A stretch of DNA of 56,952 nt from Sarea resinae. Taxonomy: Eukaryota. The notes below the pieces were generated by a model that saw only the letters and a list, made by a program, of their open reading frames with translations, was not told where the DNA came from and did not search any database. A program made the translations under genes and the position numbers. Positions within the stretch are counted from its first letter, which is position 1, and every line of letters begins with the position of its first letter. Shown piece by piece: positions 3,497-56,952 of the stretch. Location of the stretch: NCBI GenBank assembly GCA_026026165.1, contig JAPEUD010000029.1:186001-242952 (forward strand), given 5' to 3'.

Positions 3497-6250
3497 TTAG
3501 CAATACAGACGCAACTCAAGCCCAGACGATTCAACTGTCTCGACAGAACTAACGTTGCCATCAACCTGTATGTCTGTTGAGCCTGTAGCCCACTCCCGCG
3601 ACATCGGACCTTTAGGTTTGATCTCACAAAATTCCACATTCATATCTTGACCTTCAGGAAGCTCACGAACGACGTCGTCATCGATGAGGATATGGAGTCC
3701 CTTGTGGTTGACGTGAATGGTCCGGACAATTTTATTTGGATCGAGATGGCATTTCGACGCAATGCTGTTGACGAGCTCTTTCGACGAACGCTCCATGAGG
3801 TAGATGGCTCGATAGTAGCCATGTTCCATAGCTTTGCCAGCTACTCTCGGAAGGATGTAGAAACAAGCAACTGGATTTGACATTAGCTTGGGCTCCAAAA
3901 CTATGCAAGATAAAGGCGCTTACCGGGCTTGACTGATCGCTCGGGAGGTGGCTGATAAGCACTATCAACATCAAGCGCTTCAATCCAACTAGTGAGCATC
4001 CCAGGTTGGTCTTCAGATTGCTTCTTCACCTTCACAGGCTGTTGATGATCTGGCGGACTCGCAAGGTGCTGAGGATTCGATTGGAGATCCGTCGGACCAG
4101 TCTGCTGAGAATTGGTCCATTCGCTTTGCCTCAAAGACGGGTTGAATGGAGTCGCTTGCTGAAAAACAGAGCTGCGGCGATCCTGTGATTGAAGAGACTG
4201 CGAACTGGGAGTAGGAGAAACAAGCGAAGTGCTTCTCCCGGCGTTGGAAGTAGCAACACTTTCCCTTCGATCCCACGTAGAGCGTTCTACGGGCTCCATC
4301 TTCGTTAGATCTTGAGGCTCACCGGTGAGGAACACCGGGTGCAGATCCGGGTCATCCGCCTCTTGTCCGCTCAGGTAAAGAATGCTAACAGGTCTAGTCG
4401 ATGTGAACATGTCCTGCAAAGCAGCAAGCTTCAATTGCAGATCATCCTCGGTGACATGCCGACCTCCTGTTGAGCTTGCCGAGGACATAGACCATGTCCT
4501 CTTATGTTTCTGGACCTTTCCGGGTCTGCTATTCGCGGACATCTTCGCAATGGATCCGCTCCTCTTCCTCTTCCCAAAGTCTTTCATTCCAGTTTCCGCC
4601 TGCGCGATTTGCTGCTTGAGTTTGTCAATCGTCTTCTTAACATGCGCTACGTCGTTCGAAAGTTTCCGCTCCGCGCCATGATCTCTGAAGAGTTTCACCT
4701 TGCAGTAGCAGACTTCGGAAATACGACTCGTAGTGGGAATCGGACTTCCAATAGAGACCACTTCGGTTTTGGCGCATAGCCTGACTGGGATGCCTTTGAC
4801 TCCTTTAGAATGACTAAAGTCGGTGGACAAGAAATTGAACCGAACTGCGACGGAGCAATCTGCTGTGCCGCTGGGACTCGGACTCCAGACGACAGAGAAA
4901 CCATCGAATGAGGCAGTATCGAGCTCGACTCGAGGTCGGCGGGTGTCTTCGTCGCCACCCTGGTTCGGATCCACGTATTCAACGGCTTGCAGCTTTCCAC
5001 CCCGTTGATGGGCTTCATTCGTACCACGTCCCTCTTTCCAAAGTTGCCAGCACGCGGCAGGGCGCTGTCTTTGCTGCTCATCTTCGAATGAAATACGAAT
5101 GTGAGTGCGATATCTGACCAGACCGGGAGTCTGTTGTGCTGGCGCGGTGTCTATGATTGAGACGGAATAGGCTTGACCCTTGTTCAGGTACGTCACGGGA
5201 ATTTCGTCGGGATGCTTCACCATAGCTGTTGGCGCATTCAATGTGACGTGGTATCGAAACCTAGTGTACGAGAGATAAGCTATAGCCCACCATATAATGT
5301 AGAAATAGAAAACACAGGAAAGGAGTTTCGGGGACGGGATGGAATACTTACTTCCCAGAAGTCTGTACGGGGAGCCCAGACATGTTCTCATCAAATGAAT
5401 GAGAAAGTCCCATGAGCGGGGATTTCTCATGCATGTCGGTATCCATTCCCATATCATCCATGGGAGAATGATCTCCTGACGCATCCATGGTGTCGAAGCC
5501 TGTAGAATGGTGCGAAAACTGACTTGGTGCGAAAGACTCTTGAGGCCCGAAATTACCACTACTGTGGAAATGGTGCGGGTGAATCGACTGCGAGTGGAAA
5601 TCGTGCAGATCCAACGTGGAACCGGCATGAAAGCCAATCTCAGATGTAGGACCAGAGAGCGGAGTGTCCATTCCCATTCCCATGCCGGGAGTGTGGAGAT
5701 CTCCGGCCTGGCTATGGTAGAGCGTATTCGTGCCTCCAGGAGTCGGTGTATAGTAACCCGGCGGCTGGTTCGCGAAAGAGGCAAAGGCGAAAGAATTGGG
5801 GTCCAATAAAGACGGCGTAAACCTCCATTGATCGTGGGAGCCACGAGGAGTAGGGTCGTGGTCTTTCATATCTTCGCCCTCCATAAAGTTTCTGTGAAGC
5901 GGCAAAGGTCCCGTTAGCAAGGAGCATCGACAGAATCTCGCACGCACGTAAACAAGCCTTGGACGTACCGTGGATCAATTGTCGCGTCAGTCAAGGCATC
6001 GGCAATTGAAATCGTGTTGAGGTCTGGGACTCCAGACGATGTGGGCCTGACTTCGGGGAAGCTCTGCCTGAAGGTGGAGTACAGCTGTTCGGCTGGTTTC
6101 TGCGAAGTTTTGCTAGGAACCGTCTGTCAGTCCCGTCATGTCTTCGAAGATCAGCTTTCCCCCACCGGGCAAGGCTGTCACCAAGCGCAAGGGCGATAGG
6201 TATACAACGCAACAAGAAGATGAGAGATCTACTCACCGGTTGCGGAACAT
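3497..6250 (-). CDS. CP2/Grainyhead-like transcription factor (5 exons: 6250-6237, 6112-5969, 5891-5352, 5260-3924, 3870-3497)
   Basis: The spliced start reads MFRNRKTSQKP. The CP2 DNA-binding domain motifs are present (FRYHVTLNAPTAM, PVTYLNKGQAY, FNFLSTDFSHSKGVKGIPVRLCAKTE, CKVKLFRDHGAERK), plus the C-terminal GRHL region (YYRAIYLMERS, ILIDDDVVRELPEGQDM). Canonical GT-AG junctions keep the frame. Confidence 0.92.
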
Positions 6251-6497
6251 TGCATTGAGGATTTTTGGAGAACTAATCTAGGTGGGCGGCATAGAGACGA
6301 GATGTTGGGTTCGAGGTCTTTGTAAGATGTAGGCTGACTTGTTGCAAGGTGCAACGCGCCGAGGTGTCCGACAACAATGAAGGAGGGTGGATGGGAGTGG
6401 GAGCTTCAGAGGTGAAGATCAAAGTCAAATGACGAGAACAGAGATGAGGATGAAGATGAGGCAGGCGGCCCATGGAGATATAAAATAATAATGGCGC

Positions 6498-6551
6498 GGT
6501 GCCGGGTGCCAGGTGCCAGGTGCCAGGTGCGACGTGCGATGTGCGATGTGC
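6498..6551. repeat. 7-bp tandem repeats (GGTGCCA)n followed by (GTGCGAT)n
   Basis: ggtgccgggtgccaggtgccaggtgccaggtgcgacgtgcgatgtgcgatgtgc, upstream of the Grainyhead-like gene. Confidence 0.75.
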
Positions 6552-6655
6552 AAGGTGCGTAGCTCAGGTATGATATGGGAAAGAGCAGACAGAGACGGAC
6601 GGTCAGCGTAAGGTAGCGCCACCATCTGCGACAAGGGCTCAATCGCTTCCTTTAT

Positions 6656-6691
6656 CCATGGCTCCATGGCTCCATGGCTCCATGGCTCCAT
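6656..6691. repeat. 8-bp tandem repeat (CCATGGCT) x4.5
   Basis: Four perfect units plus CCAT. Confidence 0.85.
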
Positions 6692-8323
6692 CGCTTCTCT
6701 CTTGACCTCCACTGCGCTCTCCGTCTCCCTCTGCTGGGCTCTCTCTCGTCACGTCGCACACCGGGACGGGACCTACAGGAGGGAGCTGCACGGAGGTTCC
6801 GGTGAGGTAAGGCAAAGTCTCGGTACAGGCAAGCTCATACGGGCCATACATGCGCATACTTGCGGGACATGTATGCGACGCATACATTGGAGAGTAGTGG
6901 GCGAGTAGTCCGCTAGCAGTCAATCAGTCAATCAGTCAATAAAGACCTGGACCCTACTAATCAAGTGTGGCATGGGGGGGGAGGGGGGTGGAGGGACATG
7001 GGGTGGTCAGACCAGGGGGGGGTTCTGTTTAGTGAGTGGAGGGAAGAGGTGAGGAGAGTTCTTCAGTAGATGATGATGATGCTTGTTCGAAGTGGCTCCT
7101 CCCCGGCCCGCCGCTCTTGTGTCTTGACCTGGCCGTCTTCTCTTCGACTCGGATGGAGCTCTCCCACCTTCGTGCTGCGTACTCGTCCCGCGTTGGACGG
7201 AGGTGCGCTTGCAAGTACCCTACCCACGGCCCTCCTGGTCTCCCTCTGGTCTCCCTCTGGAAACTCTCACAGCTTTCCAAGGTTGGCTTTGACAACGAAC
7301 GAGGACGGCTAGGGACTGGCCCGCACTCGACAATCATCCTCCTCGGCGGAACTCATTGCTCAGTCGTCGTAAGCACTGCAGGAGACAGACAGGCTGCTGT
7401 TTCCCCCCCAGCCTGGGGGTGCCGGCCCATCCCACGTCCCAGGTGCCCCAAGCAGCGAGAGATCTGATACAACGGACAGCAAAGCCACACTTGCCCGTCG
7501 GCGCTACCGAGCTACTTGCATGCTGCTATCGTACCTTAGTTCTCTCGACCCTGCCCCGTCCTCCTCAGCCGGTCAGGTACCTACGTGGTAGGTACCTACT
7601 ATGAGTAGTAGCTTCTGAGGCACACCTACCTTATCGCCAGCGAGTACCAATGTACGAAGTACTGCGTACGGATGGATACCCTCTAGCTACCGTACCCATC
7701 ACTCCTCCTCACCTCGTTACTATGAAGTATTGTCACCAATCCGGCTGCTACCATTACTGACCTACTCCGCAGCAGTATTCTCTACGTACGCAGTACCGTA
7801 CTTTTGGCACGTTACGAAAGGAAATTTACAGGCCATCTCTCGTACCGATCTGGGCCTGGGATTCAGCACGCAATGACCCGTCGAGAGGCCTGGGCATCCA
7901 TGGATGATCGGCCTTTCCTTCGTTTTGGGACCAACCCACCGCCGCCCCTGCTAGAAGAGGATCGGCCGAGAGAGACGGCGCCACTAGACTAAAGCCACGC
8001 CGCTTCCTCTTTCGACCCAAGTGAGGCGCGTGAATCCTCGGCCTCTAAGTCACGACCTCACACCTCGCCTTACAGAGATGGCAGTGAGTTACGAGTACTC
8101 CACTTACCACCCTTAGGGTCAGCACGAAAGAAAGAAAATTCCGTACCATCCATAGTAGACTGGTAGAGCAAAGTAGCCTCTAGAGTCTGTATCTGGTGCC
8201 AACAGCTAATGTATTCGTGGGAACCTACTAGGTAGGTACTTCGAACAGCGTTCGGCTCTCGATGGGATCTCCCTTTTCCTTGTACCGTGATACCCACCCC
8301 TCTTTCCCATTATCCTAAACAAA

Positions 8324-8929
8324 ATGGGATCCTTCATATGGCGGCGGAAGATCGATCCATCCACACACGCCACACCTCAGGCACCCCAATCGGAAATGAC
8401 GTCCGAAGAGCTACGGTATGCGCTAATTGTCCAAGAGAGGAAACTGCCCAGCGATCTTTACGCGGCCAAAACTTTACTCAGACCAAAAGTGGCTCGACAG
8501 GAGGCTGCCACCCCATCGCTTAGTATGGACAGCAAGCAATACGAATACTGGAGCTAAGTCGGCCATACGGGGGGCCAGATCTCCAGCCTCAGTGGCTGTG
8601 CACTTCTCTGATACCCGGCCTGTAGGATACCACAGCCTCCCGTCTCGTACTGAGTACTTTACTTGCCCTTAGCATGGTCGATATACTCCGGAGTATTGAA
8701 CCTCTTTCGGATCATTCTTCTGCTGATCCTATCTGCTCATACCATTTACTGTGCAATAAGGTTTGCCTCGACTTTAATCAGAATCACGAGAGTAATAACA
8801 AGGTACCACGGCTCACTATCCTGGGCATGTGTGGCGCAAATCGAAGGTATCTGTTCTGTTCAAGATGCCTGGCAAAACTTCGCACCGGCCAACCGAGTGG
8901 ATATGATCTCCGCATTGGTGCCCCTTTGA
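8324..8929 (+). other. Candidate orphan small membrane-protein gene or gene relic (possible exons 8324-8522, 8673-8929; 151 aa)
   Basis: The start has a strong AAACAAAATGG context after a CT-rich tract. A GTATGG donor and a TACTGAG...CCCTTAG acceptor join two same-frame ORFs in phase. There is one hydrophobic segment (VLNLFRIILLLILSAHTIYCAI). No family is recognised. Confidence 0.25.
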
Positions 8930-10699
8930 CGCGTCGCACTTACGGTAGCGCCATTGGCCAGCTGAAAATTTGCCATTGAACAATTCCATCCCTTTGATGA
9001 TTCACCAGTGACGAGGAGAAGCCCCTGGTTGTTGGGCGACCCTAAAATAGGACATTTTATTGCGTGCGAGCGAGCTCCATGATTGCTATCTACCATACTT
9101 AGGCCTGAGACCGAGAAAAGTCAAGAAAGTCAATTGAACGCCAATTACCGGTCCTCAAATGTTAGCTAACCACTACGCGCCCGAATAGAATGATCAGTGC
9201 CATGGCGTAACGGCAGAGCTGGGACAAAAGCCGCAAGCGCGTTTCGATGGCATTCCGTCGCAGTCTGCGTGTTGGATCTTTTGGGTTTGTCGACATCTCC
9301 GAGAAGTGATGTTTACTCTCCCGTCTGCCGGGGGTATTACTCGGCATGTGGGCCCCAATCATTACGAAACGCCATGAAAAGAATAAATAAATTATCGATT
9401 GAGAGGTTTCTCAGCATGCCAGAAGAGAGTACAAGTGGAGCATTCGAAGAGGAGCCTTTCGTCATCAACAAAAATAGGTATTCAACCGAAGATCGGATCA
9501 GGCTCGATCGCGACATGACAGACAAGGAATTATGCAAGCGCTTGCATAAAAAGACAACACACACGAAGTACATTGTAAACTTCAGGGCCGCATCCTCGGG
9601 CCCTACCTACAAGGTCACCTGGGCTACTACCTTACCTACAGTAGGGTAGGTAGGTAGGACTAGGCAAGTGCTGTATCTCAGCCGAGTCTACGGAGTAGTG
9701 TGCGACGAGACATGCCGAGCGGCCGATCAAATCAATGATCGATGGAGACGCGACTCCACCAGCACCTTCAGGCCGAGTACATTCTAGATGGTCGCACGCC
9801 TATGCTTGCCGCACTTGGAATGGACAGAGAGTTTTCGTACTCGAGTAATCGCACTTCTCACGGGGGGGACATGTCGGCGCTCACCGAAAGCAATTCATTT
9901 TGGCGAGATGAAAGCGTTTCAGATATGGCGAATGGGGGTAGAGTAAGGTAGACTCGTCTCCACTAGCCAAACCCCTACCCACGTTCAATTTCCGCATGTC
10001 AATGGAGATTACGATGGGTCCCACGTGGTGCGCTGGCAGGGAATTCCAACAAATCGAGATGGGATTTATGCGAGGTGAAAGGCGAAAGGGTAAGCTAGAG
10101 GTAGGTAGGTACCTTAGGTACCTCCTTAGCCAACCATACCATACCCTCTCGCCATGCGTTCAAGTGAGCGCAGACTGTCTACTTTCGTGCTAGCCCTAGA
10201 GAGATAGAAGGCCTAAAGCACCCTCGCCACAACTCTGTTGCCACATTCCCCGCTTGTGGCGATACGTTGTGGCTGAGCGCTGACGACGAACGCCTTGGGT
10301 GGATGGACGACCTCTCCGCTAACGAGGGCCTGAGAGGAAAGAACCGAGTACCCACCTTAACCCCATCGGACAATGGGGTGGTAAGCACTCTACTCCGAGC
10401 AAGGTAGGTAGAAATCTCCATGAAGCCAAAATTTGTTCTGGACCCGCACATCTGTAGCCGGCAAGTCTTTCGATCGCCTGGGCTCATCTGACTTTACAGC
10501 CACAGAGCGTCACGGCTTGAGAATGCATAAGGTAATTTCGGAACGCTTCTAGATCATCGGTAGACTTTAAAATGAGAACAATTGCAACAGCTTCTGATCG
10601 GCAGTCCATACAATAGTTCAGGGTTTTACACGATTGTCCAGTAGATCTCTTCCAATCCTAGGCGCGGATCTTCTTCCTAGACCGCTGTTATGGTCGCCT

Positions 10700-48198: not shown

Positions 48199-50081
48199 GA
48201 GGGCTTAGCCATTATGGGATCGGCCACGAGAACAGGGGTCTCTGGAGTTGGGAGACCGGTATAAACACGGCGCGCGGAAGGGAACTTTGCGGGAGCGAAA
48301 AGAAAAAGGGCATGAAAGTGATAAGTCGGCATGATTGTTGGTATACTGCGCATCGCTGTCGGCTCAGCATAGCCGGGGCAAAAGCTCTGTTCCTTCAGCC
48401 ATGTCTTGTCTTTTCTTCATGGTCACTCTCCTAACGTCTTCCACCCTCTCTTTCCCATGTCCTCTTTTCCTTTCCTTTTCATCGATAACGCGCGCCAGCT
48501 AGCAAGCATAGCTTACGATACGAATGTTACGACCCGTGTTTCTGTCCTTCATCTTCGCTCTAGCTATCACAATCTTAAGAAAAGAAGATTCCAACCAAGT
48601 ATGTATGCTCACTTTGATGGTGGGAATCTCTGGTACGCAGCGACGTGAGCAACGATACGTCCAGCACGCACAATGATATATCCACATGCGTTATTGACAA
48701 GACATTCTTACACCAGCGGCACTTCTATAGCACACGAGTTTACTCACCCATAAAGCCACGCAGAAGAGCTCACATGCACCTCACCTCCGCATCAACGACA
48801 GGTCATGCGCCTACCACGCCCATCCCACGAGTGCGCTGGCCACCTCATATATATACTACTTAATCGATAGCTAGGCCGAACCTACGGTATGGCAGTCTAG
48901 AGGGCATGACAGTGGTGCATCCCGGCATCTCGCATAGCCTCACCTAAGGTAAGTAGGTACTCAACTAGTAGTTGTTGATATGGCATGCGTAGAGATTTAC
49001 GCTGTGCAAGGCAGCTATCCATCTGCGCTTGTCTTGTCTCTCTTATGTTGCTCCTTGTGTCCTCATCCGCTCCTCACACGGCTTTTGTAAAAGTACTTTG
49101 CACCCCCGCGACCGAGATTCGCAGCTATGTTTCTTGCCCAGTACTACGACTCTCTACCATCCCCTTCTCGTTCTCGCAGTCCTTTTCCTACTCCTATCCT
49201 CGATCGAATCCAAGGCTGCTATAGGAACCAAGACAAAACCGGGACTCACGGGCCTCATAGCATTTACAACTCAGCAGCAAAATACATCCATGCTAGGGAA
49301 GAACAGAGAAGAACGGTTGTATTTGTATTTGTATCTGTGATGACGGCGTACGAGAGTTTTGGGTGATGACGATGATGATGAATGGCGAGACGTGATAGTG
49401 TCCTCCTGACCGAAGTCTTCAGAAAAGACAGCAGACAGCCAGTAATAGCGAGACCAATGGATGTATGCAAGACAGGGGCTGAAAGGCCACAGACAAGGTG
49501 GGGAAATGAGACTTTAGGTGGGATATGCGGGCAGCACATGGCAGGACATGTTCGCCCTAGACAGACAGACGCTCGCTCGGCCACATATTAGAGAGACAAA
49601 AGAGAATGCGCACATCAAAAGAAACGCTTGGAAAAAGAGCCCATTGCTGGCTGGATATGCGTTTAGGCTGGCTGTTTGATAGGGTCTTGACTGGCTGGCT
49701 GGCTTGTACGAGGCAATGAAAGAGAAGAGGATTTGATTGGAGAAGGGAAAATAGTGAATGTAGCGGACTGACACAAAAAGCTGGCTGCTAAGGGGGCCCG
49801 GCGAAGGGAAAATGAAGATGGGAGGCCAAGAAGCCAAAGTCCGTCCAGTCCATACTTGGGTTAGTAAGGAGGGATGTAGACTTCGTGTTCTCGTCACACG
49901 TAAAACAACGCACGCCGGCACAGACACCCAGGAGACCCGCATGATACAAGAGGAAATAGTTCCGAGGCAAACGAGGAAAAAAAGTAGACTTCCGTCCATG
50001 CTCCAGAAGAATCGTCAGTGAAGTCGAATGTGGAAGAGGCTGAAGGGTAAGATGATGAGAGTCGTTGTCATGAAGGTTAGA

Positions 50082-51060
50082 TCAGCTTCCATCAGGATTC
50101 GTGACCTATTTTCAGTCAGTATGGTCTCGTGGCATTTCCTTGACGTGCCCACCTTGAGGATTCTCCGAGAGTAATCCTGATTGTCTGCTATGCTGCCGTC
50201 ACTCTGCCTTCGTTGCATCATAACAGATGGTTCAAGACGAGAGTCGGAGACGGAAGAAGCACTGCCCGGCTTGGCTCCGCCGAAACCCGTCAAGGCTGCA
50301 TTCCGGCGATACTCCTCCTCGATGGCTCGTCGTCTCCGCATCCGCAAGTATACCAAAGCTCCGCCTATTATAGCACTAAGGGCGACCACACCGACAACGA
50401 CGCCTGCGGCGATGCCGGCCTTGTTGGTTCCAGAGCCATGTTTTTTGGTGGTTTCTGTTGGTGCTGCCGCGGTTGATTGTCCGGATGCAGTGACAACCTT
50501 TGTAGGCCCTCCGATGGTAACGACTGATGGCCCTTCGGTTTTGAGAGTGGGAGATGTCGCAACAGTGGAGCTAGCTTTTGTTGTGGCCGCCGCAGAACTC
50601 GATGATGGCGACGCAACCGGCACACTGCCTCCAATACCTGCCAATGCAACTGTCCACAGCATATCTCCACCACCTATCAAGAATGATTAGCCATTTACGC
50701 CCGTACCTGGGCTCCGGGGAGCAACATACACGTATCTTGTTGGTACCCTTGGCATGGCGAGTTGCACTGGTTGTCGGCAACCTTGTCTGATGTGGGCGGC
50801 AACTCATCACCACACCAGCAATTACTTCCCCCAGTAGTTGCCATGACTGGCTTATTCAAGGCCACGCAGACCTTCTGACAGTAGCCTGAGGTTTGGAAGG
50901 TGTACGCTCCTTGATCTTCTAACGGATAACCGGTAGAGTAGCATCCTTTCGTCACAATGGCACCGTATGCCTGGGTTGGAGAAGGCGTCTGGCCAAGCAC
51001 GGGAAGAACAGCAAAGAAGAACGAAGAGACCGCCGCGGCGGCATATGGTATTGATTTCAT
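50082..51060 (-). CDS. Wsc1/WscA-like cell-wall stress sensor (exons 51060-50730, 50673-50153, 50105-50082)
   Basis: It has a signal peptide, a Cys-rich WSC domain (KGCY...CQKVC...NCWCGD...CNSPCQGYQQDTCGG), an S/T-rich stalk, a single TM helix (AGIAAGVVVGVVALSAIIGGALVYL) and a cytosolic tail ending DNQDYSRRILKVTNPDGS. Confidence 0.92.
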
Positions 51061-55479: not shown

Positions 55480-56952
55480 CTATCTTGACAGACGCTTTCG
55501 CACGAGGTCCCGAATCTTCTTCGTGCTGAAGGCCCTGGTATAAATAGCGATTGAGACCCCAGACGTGCCACAAAGACCTCCACCGCTTGTACAAACGTTG
55601 CAATTGGACTGTACTATCTGTCCCTGACCACCGCTGCCAGCTACCAGAACCAAAGTGTTGCCACAATAACAAGAGGCCGATGAAGTAGTCAATGCAACGG
55701 TGCCAAAATAAGAGTAACCGCCCGCTGAACAAAGAGTTGTGCAATTTTGGTCATCATCGGTGGTAAATGAACCCCCGTAAACTGTGAGAGCTGTCCCGTT
55801 AGGAGTGGTACTGCTGTTGCCGGTCTGTGTGAAGCAGCCAACATAGGAGTATCCAACTCCAGTCGAGCCTGGCGCGCCAGTAGGACCTGCGGGACCAGAT
55901 GGACCTGTTGCGCCAGTAGGCCCCGATGGACCCGTCGACCCGTTGAACCCTTGAGGTCCAGAAGGTCCAGAAGGTCCTATTGCACCAGTAGGGCCAGAAG
56001 GACCTGAAGGCCCAGCTGATCCATTGAAACCTTGCGGTCCGGAGGGTCCAGAAGGTCCTACTGCACCAGTGGGCCCTGGGGGACCTGTCGCGCCAGTTGG
56101 CCCCGATGGACCCGTCGATCCGTTGAACCCCTGCGGCCCTGAGGGACCAGATGGGCCCGTCAAGCCGGTAGGCCCTATTGGACCTGTCGCGCCAGTTGGC
56201 CCCGATGGACCCGTCGATCCGTTGAACCCCTGCGGCCCTGAGGGACCAGATGGGCCCGTCAAGCCGGTAGGCCCTATTGGACCTGTCGCGCCAGTAGGCC
56301 CCGATGGACCCGTCGACCCGTTGAACCCTTGCGGCCCTGAGGGACCAGATGGGCCTGTCGCGCCAATAGGCCCCGATGGACCCGTCGACCCGTTGAACCC
56401 TTGCGGCCCTGAGGGACCAGATGGGCCTGTCAAGCCGGTAGGCCCTATTGGACCCGTCGCGCCGGTAGGCCCTATTGGACCTGTTGCGCCAGTTGGCCCC
56501 GATGGACCCGTCGACCCGTTGAACCCCTGCGGCCCTGAGGGACCAGATGGGCCTGTCAAGCCGGTAGGCCCTATTGGACCCGTCGCGCCGGTAGGCCCTA
56601 TTGGACCAGTTGCGCCAGTTGGCCCCGATGGACCCGTCGACCCGTTGAACCCCTGGGGTCCTGTTGGTCCCGACGGCCCTGTCGCTCCGGTTGGGCCTGA
56701 AGCTCCTGTTGCGCCCGTGGGTCCTGACAGTCCCAACGGTCCTGACGGTCCCGACGGCCCGCTAGGTCCTGTCGAACCGTTGAAGCCTTGTGGTCCAGAG
56801 GGCCCTGACGGTCCACTGGGTCCTGTGGCGCCTGTTGCTCCCGTAGGCCCCGACGGTCCTGTCGCTCCCGTGGGGCCCGAAGCTCCAGTTGCGCCCGTGG
56901 GCCCCGATGGCCCTGACGGTCCGCTGGGTCCTGTTGAACCGTTGAAGCCTTG
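55480..56952 (-). CDS. Collagen-like (Gly-X-Y)n protein with C-terminal WSC domain; 5' end lies beyond the window
   Basis: The frame is open from the window edge (56952) to the TAG at 55480, giving 490 aa in the window. About 121 consecutive G-X-Y triplets ([18 protein letters not shown]) are followed by a WSC-type Cys pattern (YSYVGCF...CTTLC...YSYFG...CYCGN...CNVC...LCG...IAIY) and a basic tail. Confidence 0.88.
55861..56952 (-). repeat. Coding minisatellite array of the collagen-like gene (units of 72-126 bp in the central part, all multiples of 9 bp)
   Basis: The anchor CCGTTGAACCC (or a close variant) recurs with spacings of 126, 126, 72, 99, 99, 99 and 81 bp. The central units are nearly identical at the DNA level. 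Confidence 0.9.

Follow-up and report, generated by a model that had tools for sequence, protein, structure and literature searches.

What protein is encoded at the very end of this contig, where a long collagen-like repeat runs into a cysteine-rich domain on one side and off the assembled DNA on the other? The locus lies at the edge of a 56,952-nucleotide stretch of the Sarea resinae genome (contig JAPEUD010000029.1, positions 186,001 to 242,952; hereafter the window), where the minus strand from 56952 to 55480 forms a single frame of 490 amino acids, open at the window edge. A preliminary description drawn from these letters had proposed a collectin-like protein, with an uncharged collagen stalk, a C-terminal WSC glycan-binding head and a basic tail, perhaps assembled into a trimeric rod displaying three heads.

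Completion of the gene and its collagen rod

The window ends where its contig (C66) ends, and the last 122 bases of C66 (56831..56952, minus strand) are identical to the first 122 bases of a second contig, G000:C127 (L006); the string occurs once in each contig and keeps the reading frame. C127 carries the frame onward and completes the gene, adding a second globular domain. The resulting model has 823 amino acids, two putative introns (both in C127 and of GT-AG type) and one stop, and reads, in order, a hydrophobic N-terminus, a Ser/Thr/acidic segment, a dibasic Kex2-like site, a DUF7908 domain, 158 triplets, the head and the tail. On the minus strand of L006, the first exon (1224-1007) holds the ATG and a signal-peptide-like start, and is followed by a putative 55 nt intron (1006-952; GT donor, CTAAT branch, AAG acceptor), placed there because it is needed to join the first exon in frame. 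The next exon (951-521) encodes the Kex2-like site and the DUF7908 beta-trefoil (923-525), and a second putative intron of 48 nt (520-473; GTAAGT...CAG) precedes the 36 further triplets with which the rod begins. Excision of this second intron gives a 12-residue spacing between two cysteines, as in four homologs (read by eye), and both indels of a low-depth relative fall within it. The DNA run covering the 5' part may be the assembly's own source, and so is not independent of it.

Extension of the contig, which the preliminary description had suggested as the way to find an ATG and a signal peptide, thus reached the ATG on C127 and a short, hydrophobic N-terminus (hydropathy over 7 residues reaching 2.8, with a short h-region) which is signal-peptide-like as judged by hydropathy alone; the encoded protein is probably secreted. 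Upstream on L006 lie genes for an FCP1-like CTD phosphatase (NIF domain; 4330-6768, plus strand) and an MSH2-like MutS protein (7449-10000, plus strand), housekeeping neighbours which place the collagen gene outside a mobile or subtelomeric context. Downstream, 4.4 kb away and on the same strand, the window carries a canonical Wsc1-type wall sensor gene (50015-51060, minus strand) with a signal peptide, a WSC domain (E 6.9e-13), a Ser/Thr spacer, a TM helix and a basic stop-transfer sequence.

The window part of the stalk (55852..56949, minus strand) consists of 122 consecutive Gly-X-Y triplets, bearing out the at least 121 first reported, and the run continues uninterrupted to 158 in the whole model, which may be a minimum since the contigs break within the repeat. 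No Gly-X-Y run longer than five occurs in any other frame of the window, and the Pfam Collagen family (PF01391) matches at E 3.9e-55. As first described, the window part is uncharged (0 charged residues), with X mostly Pro (75/122) and Y mostly Thr (50/122) or Ser (38/122). Over the whole rod, X is Pro in 99 of 158 triplets and Y is Thr or Ser in 112, Pro in three and never Lys, and there is one charged residue. The description of the stalk as GPT-rich did not hold, as GPS (49/158) is commoner than GPT (25/158). The rod carries 13 recurring N-G-S sequons, ten of them in the window. At the collagen-helix rise of 0.286 nm per residue, it would be about 135 nm long if triple-helical. Pro occupies 102 of its 316 X and Y positions; the median metazoan collagen is given as 64 triplets with 29.9% Pro at X/Y in the main text of bioRxiv 10.1101/2021.10.08.463732. 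All four Gly codons are used and synonymous sites are saturated: when 12 copies of a 12-residue unit are compared, third codon positions account for 51 of the 60 base differences, a partly circular count as the copies were picked by protein identity. Neither a Gly substitution nor a stop occurs within the 158 triplets. The remaining collagen Pfam matches of the genome lie on C89 and C116 and resemble simple repeats within short frames.

The WSC head and its predicted trimer

The eight-cysteine head (55528..55851, minus strand) matches the Pfam WSC family (PF01822) at E 1.1e-4 and 22.8 bits, which is under the gathering score of 27.8, so that the WSC pattern noted at the outset is recognised by HMMER below the cut-off; one relative, P0012, exceeds it (29.3 bits). 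The cysteines stand in WSC order, each present in 17 or all 18 of the aligned rows, and the predicted fold is that of WSC structures, albeit in a model with a pLDDT of only 58.9. Foldseek placed yeast Wsc1 (7pz2) first (E 5.8e-3) and Kremen next, with no match at E<=0.001 for either the head or the DUF7908 domain. In a wide structure search, the top four matches were all WSC-bearing entries (Z 8.2-7.2, the best with rmsd 3.0 over 96 aligned residues), and the next fell to 4.3. A sequence-profile search of solved structures gave weak Kremen matches (E 0.13) and nothing better. Of the CGG motif at the last cysteine, C-G is kept and the third residue is not Gly. As modelled, the head is a divergent WSC domain of PAN/apple fold with an altered CGG motif; Pfam and the two structure searches assign it to WSC/PAN, and not to the C-type lectin or fibrinogen-like folds. 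Its first strand starts at the last triplet with no helix before it, and a coiled-coil neck between stalk and head is absent.

Beyond the head lies a basic extension of 15 residues (55483..55527, minus strand) and then the stop codon (55480..55482, minus strand). As had been described, it carries no TM or GPI signal: no hydrophobic segment follows the head, there is neither a TM helix nor a cytoplasmic tail, and the C-terminus is basic. It is not conserved. In 25 of 26 homologs the protein stops at the head's last strand, on the conserved final aromatic of a Y-x-R-x-F motif, so the extension is private to this copy; a search of the sequence for an intron that would excise it revealed no donor site. 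Heads of Chaetothyriales (P0074, P0082, P0083, P0094) have an insertion with two extra cysteines after the first strand, probably a fifth disulfide.

Three copies of a construct with eight triplets and the head, the 15-residue tail left off, were modelled together. The trimer scored 0.75 (0.75, 0.78, 0.72) against 0.01 for the best control, and the runs shared at least 83% of contacts at a pLDDT of at least 73. In calibration with two copies only, the mark that the trimer passes was reached by 21 of 30 solved microbial homo-pairs and 0 of 23 monomers, and by 17 of 29 eukaryotic homo-pairs and 0 of 30 monomers; among eukaryotic pairs without an older solved relative, however, only one in seven reached it. 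As the construct held eight triplets, the pass may also partly reflect memory of collagen helices. The lowest-error contacts are between heads: Y27 lies at the axis and contacts residues 129-131, and the terminal F132 packs against residues 25-26 and 58-62 of the neighbour. Positions 25, 27, 128 and 132 are aromatic in 17, 17, 18 and 16 of 18 aligned rows; 16 rows also have R130. The placing of the terminal aromatics in the predicted interface would explain why the family ends exactly there; the tail omitted from the construct directly follows the predicted latch residue. Three other conserved aromatics of the head (72, 73 and 86) lie outside the listed interface residues. The model supports binding without showing it, and the head probably mediates trimerisation. 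Of the proposed trimeric rod with three heads, the head trimer is thereby backed by a prediction, one which includes eight triplets of the rod.

The N-terminal domain and the distribution of the family

The domain found on C127 matches DUF7908 (PF25485) at E 2.6e-30. Its model (pLDDT 86.7) takes a beta-trefoil fold, and the best structural match is the lectin Mitsuba-1, at a middling Z of 8.9 (rmsd 3.0, 113 aligned residues), with many trefoils tied behind it; 23 chains reached Z>=8 and the matches listed are all trefoil proteins. QxW/F motifs number zero in this copy and 0-2 in relatives. We therefore speak of a predicted beta-trefoil lectin fold, which is a statement on fold and says nothing on function. 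The nearest predicted structures of DUF7908 include DUF7907 and a 'cell wall' cluster, it may be related to the yeast PIR C-terminal domain, and our literature search found no paper naming it. A relative seen at low depth (run X2, L006:459-832) is ~91% identical over the DUF7908 exon, and differs there by nine non-synonymous and five synonymous codon changes, which at this low depth argues for no strong purifying selection on the domain; the loose end of this relative continues into collagen-type sequence.

DUF7908 recurs in two Ser/Thr-rich secreted paralogs in the genome, a likeness to wall-type proteins. The first, on C35 (L025:3923-7477, plus strand), is a second collagen gene with the order reversed: a signal peptide, a Ser-rich region, ~32 triplets in two runs (Gly-Ala-Pro-rich, with Pro at Y and so hydroxylatable), and DUF7908, behind which come an Asn-rich repeat, an extended Ser/Thr region and a hydrophobic, GPI-like end. 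Collagen and DUF7908 appear to have been fused independently in this gene. The second, on C55 (L026:3686-8339, plus strand), lacks collagen, has more than 1000 Ser/Thr-rich residues and carries an N-terminal module with no Pfam match, which is also found in 14 of 26 homologs of the collagen protein and is missing from the present copy. Between the signal peptide and the Kex2-like site of P0008, P0020 and P0057 (residues about 35-100), ~70-100 residues form a conserved module which bears an N-A-P-T motif, belongs to no Pfam family and is possibly a pro-domain.

HMMER with the head over 1.84 billion representatives found 32 relatives. A profile search, which scored 8000 candidates of 334-2000 aa, listed 46 matches, 21 of which combine DUF7908, collagen and this head; the remainder comprise one N-truncated protein with collagen only, one with DUF7908 and seven triplets, and 23 long multi-WSC proteins with mostly lower scores. 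Word-indexed homolog searches returned none of 657 candidates with the head alone and none of 357 with the DUF7908 region alone, and ESM Atlas features gave no usable match. By a look-up of 30 proteins, the named carriers of the three-part layout among the matches listed are Pycnora, Cladonia, Stereocaulon, Lambiella, Aureobasidium, Cladosporium, Elasticomyces, Friedmanniomyces, Cladophialophora and Fonsecaea, with partial models in Xylographa, Peltaster and Recurvomyces. We take these carriers to be lichen-forming fungi and black rock, leaf-surface or yeast-like fungi; going by the named carriers among the matches listed, the family would be linked to these lifestyles. By sequence comparison, then, the architecture is that of a family in at least four ascomycete lineages and no one-off. 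In 26 homologs, the rods have 7 to 114 detected triplets, nearly uncharged and rich in Thr, Ser and Gln at Y, none with N-sequons, and a dibasic-Gln pattern occurs in the N-terminal part of 22.

A tree of both domains from the query and 17 homologs (near-duplicates and fragments excluded) groups Dothideomycetes (100/100), Chaetothyriales (100/100) and Lecanoromycetes (75/80). The query and Pycnora fall outside these groups in a weakly placed position (64/69), and the query has the longest branch. As the tree follows the fungal classes, it fits vertical descent from an old ancestor. Absence of the family from Sordariomycetes, Leotiomycetes, Eurotiales and yeasts is only suggested by these searches; the Sordariomycetes and Leotiomycetes matches among those listed are long multi-WSC proteins without collagen. 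Public models of the family are often partial or lose the frame within the rod, which may explain why the family was overlooked: P0002, P0013, P0067, P0082 and the Aureobasidium models are out of frame, contain intron-like text or are marked partial in the rod or head. Public databases list the proteins under automatically assigned names alone.

Known systems, proposed role and alternatives

Animal collectins (MBL, SP-A, SP-D) and ficolins share with this protein a collagen stalk with a C-terminal head of carbohydrate-recognition type; secretion, which is probable here, a trimeric head, which is predicted, and the avidity of three heads would be further common points. Collectins are defined by a C-type lectin domain, a coiled-coil neck and hydroxylation. 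The present head is WSC/PAN-apple where theirs is C-type lectin or fibrinogen-like, there is no neck, the stalk is much longer, and the N-terminus is a beta-trefoil domain in place of a short Cys peptide. With Pro at Y in three of 158 triplets and no Lys, the rod would also have no hydroxylation-based stability, unlike collectins. The collectin-like architecture first proposed thus stands as to the collagen stalk with a C-terminal head and fails as to the lectin domain and neck; the N-terminal beta-trefoil had been missed, and its presence makes the protein double-headed and not a one-ended collectin. The protein is convergent with collectins, would work much as they do, and is not a member.

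The eight-Cys WSC fold is shared with SiWSC3 of Serendipita indica and the yeast Wsc1 CRD (PDB 7pz2), in both of which the last Cys pair and CGG motif differ from the head described here. The three WSC domains of SiWSC3 sit on one chain, whereas here they would come from three; Wsc1 is a sensor that combines a TM segment with a Ser/Thr spring, whereas here there is no TM segment and the head is C-terminal. In Wsc1, whose first Cys is at 27, aromatic cluster 1 comprises Y22, Y24 and Y107, and its mutation impairs function, according to passages of PMC9024836. Y25 and Y27 lie at the same distances from C30 as Y22 and Y24 from the first Cys of Wsc1, and Y128 corresponds approximately to Y107. Bacillus BclA and Pasteuria Pcl7 resemble the protein in their hydroxyproline-free, Thr-rich collagen with Pro at X, variable length and globular C-terminal domain, and differ in head fold; probable eukaryotic secretion, introns, an excess of GPS over GPT and the added beta-trefoil also set the fungal protein apart, and the exosporium-targeting motif, in the form given in passages of PMC10987987, does not occur in the N-terminal translation. 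Metarhizium Mcl1 and other collagen-like proteins of fungi are secreted Gly-X-Y proteins, as this one would be; Mcl1 reportedly has neither WSC nor trefoil.

Collagen-like domains have been counted in 73 of 169 fungal families, and the main text of that survey makes no mention of WSC (bioRxiv 10.1101/2021.10.08.463732). Our literature search, from which most subscription journals fell outside, found no description of a collagen and WSC family in fungi, in line with the initial impression that such a fusion had not been characterised; the architecture search suggested at the time shows the layout to recur without a published description being found. In the literature on lichens, 'collagen-like protein' was not found among the matches listed. 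The double-headed collagen/WSC family is apparently undescribed, as is this variant of the collagen-stalked lectin design, with a WSC head and an N-terminal trefoil.

We propose, with confidence evenly balanced, that the protein is a secreted, non-anchored, homotrimeric collagen-like glycoprotein which cross-links the fungal wall or an extracellular polysaccharide matrix. From sequence and conservation, the N-terminal signal peptide would take it into the ER and the Kex2-like site would allow removal of a pro-region. In the model, three WSC heads would pair directly, neckless, through Y25/Y27 and the terminal Y-x-R-x-F, setting the chain register from which the helix would zip from the C-end. 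Glycosylated Thr is able to stabilise a collagen helix, and the 158-triplet, ~135 nm rod would be held by Pro at X and probably by O-glycosylated Thr/Ser at Y in place of hydroxyproline. Such a trimer would supply three WSC domains in trans. According to passages of PMC9024836, a single WSC domain has no glycan pocket, SiWSC3 with its three binds long beta-1,3-glucan, multimerisation is proposed as the WSC route to glycan affinity, and WSC domains also mediate protein-protein contacts, as in Kremen. Glucan binding by SiWSC3 also appears in passages of PMC7816849, where the lichen matrix is glucan-rich and described in terms of polysaccharides. The clustered heads may therefore bind long beta-1,3-glucan by avidity, as SiWSC3 does, the three beta-trefoils at the far end may bind a wall glycan or wall protein, and in the gel matrix around lichen and black fungi the rod would keep two surfaces or polymers tied together at a set spacing. 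As the WSC heads would be joined in trans, a lectin-fold trimer would occupy the far end and no membrane anchor is present, a spacer cross-linker is the most economical role. Against it stand the sub-threshold WSC score and changed CGG motif, the middling Z scores and lack of QxW/F motifs in the trefoil, the short h-region, the nine versus five codon changes in DUF7908, the private tail and the missing N-terminal module.

To decide between coat fibre, adhesin, mask and partner lectin we rely on inference. An adhesin or partner-recognition lectin, whose trefoil end grips the fungal wall and whose rod carries the WSC trimer out across the matrix to a foreign surface such as an alga, a cyanobacterium, a leaf cuticle or a rock biofilm, would suit rods that range from 7 to 158 triplets across the family, as in projecting adhesins, the many amino-acid changes in DUF7908 of the low-depth relative and the lichen fungi among the named carriers. 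Collagen-like proteins of Pasteuria and Bacillus do adhere via the C-terminal domain (passages of PMC10987987). We nevertheless think it unlikely, because non-lichenised Aureobasidium, Cladosporium, Friedmanniomyces and Cladophialophora have the same protein, so that photobiont recognition cannot be the family's general role; the protein also has neither a GPI nor a TM anchor, and the gene tree tracks taxonomy. A protective coat or glucan mask, in which glycosylated, uncharged rods held by WSC heads shield glucan from hydrolases, grazers and host receptors and keep water, is comparable with Metarhizium Mcl1 or a spore nap. The 112 Thr/Ser at Y, 13 N-sequons and near-absence of charge would fit it, as would the exposed, drying surfaces which we take the carriers to inhabit; yet a mask needs no second conserved globular domain at the far end, and the rod N-sequons recur in none of the 26 homologs, making this role quite improbable.

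It is more doubtful still that the heads bind proteins and not glycans, with WSC and trefoil acting as trimerisation or end-to-end assembly domains of the protein's own network or filament. Kremen WSC binds proteins (passages of PMC9024836), conserved head aromatics are taken up by the predicted trimer core and DUF7908 lacks ricin-type QxW motifs, but aromatics 72, 73 and 86 lie outside the listed interface and the sole characterised multi-WSC fungal protein met in this comparison is a glucan lectin. That this copy is decaying or misassembled within a real family seems to us highly improbable: the stop read past the family C-terminus, the lack of an N-terminal module, a branch longer than any other in the tree and a repeat interrupted by a contig break are set against 158 triplets without a Gly substitution or stop, eight conserved head cysteines, saturated synonymous sites and an overlap that is exact, unique and in frame.

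Extending the cross-linker proposal, we advance only tentatively that lichen-forming and black fungi may share an ancient, independently evolved collagen matrix protein, a strut of up to ~135 nm with lectin-fold trimers at both ends cross-linking the gel that cements thalli and microcolonies, in which WSC would act as a chain-registering trimerisation domain via a Wsc1-type aromatic cluster. If true, the strut would serve as a direct structural model of how WSC domains cluster and gain avidity. Collagen domains abound in fungi, and for hardly any of them is a job or a partner domain known; here the architecture is defined and conserved, and its carriers are fungi in which an extracellular gel holds the cells together. 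The family makes testable whether fungi use true triple-helical, hydroxyproline-free collagen as matrix, and whether clustering is what gives WSC domains their glycan affinity, the proposal made in passages of PMC9024836, since the predicted interface is open to mutation. There is a short natural member, as well as tractable carriers such as Aureobasidium.
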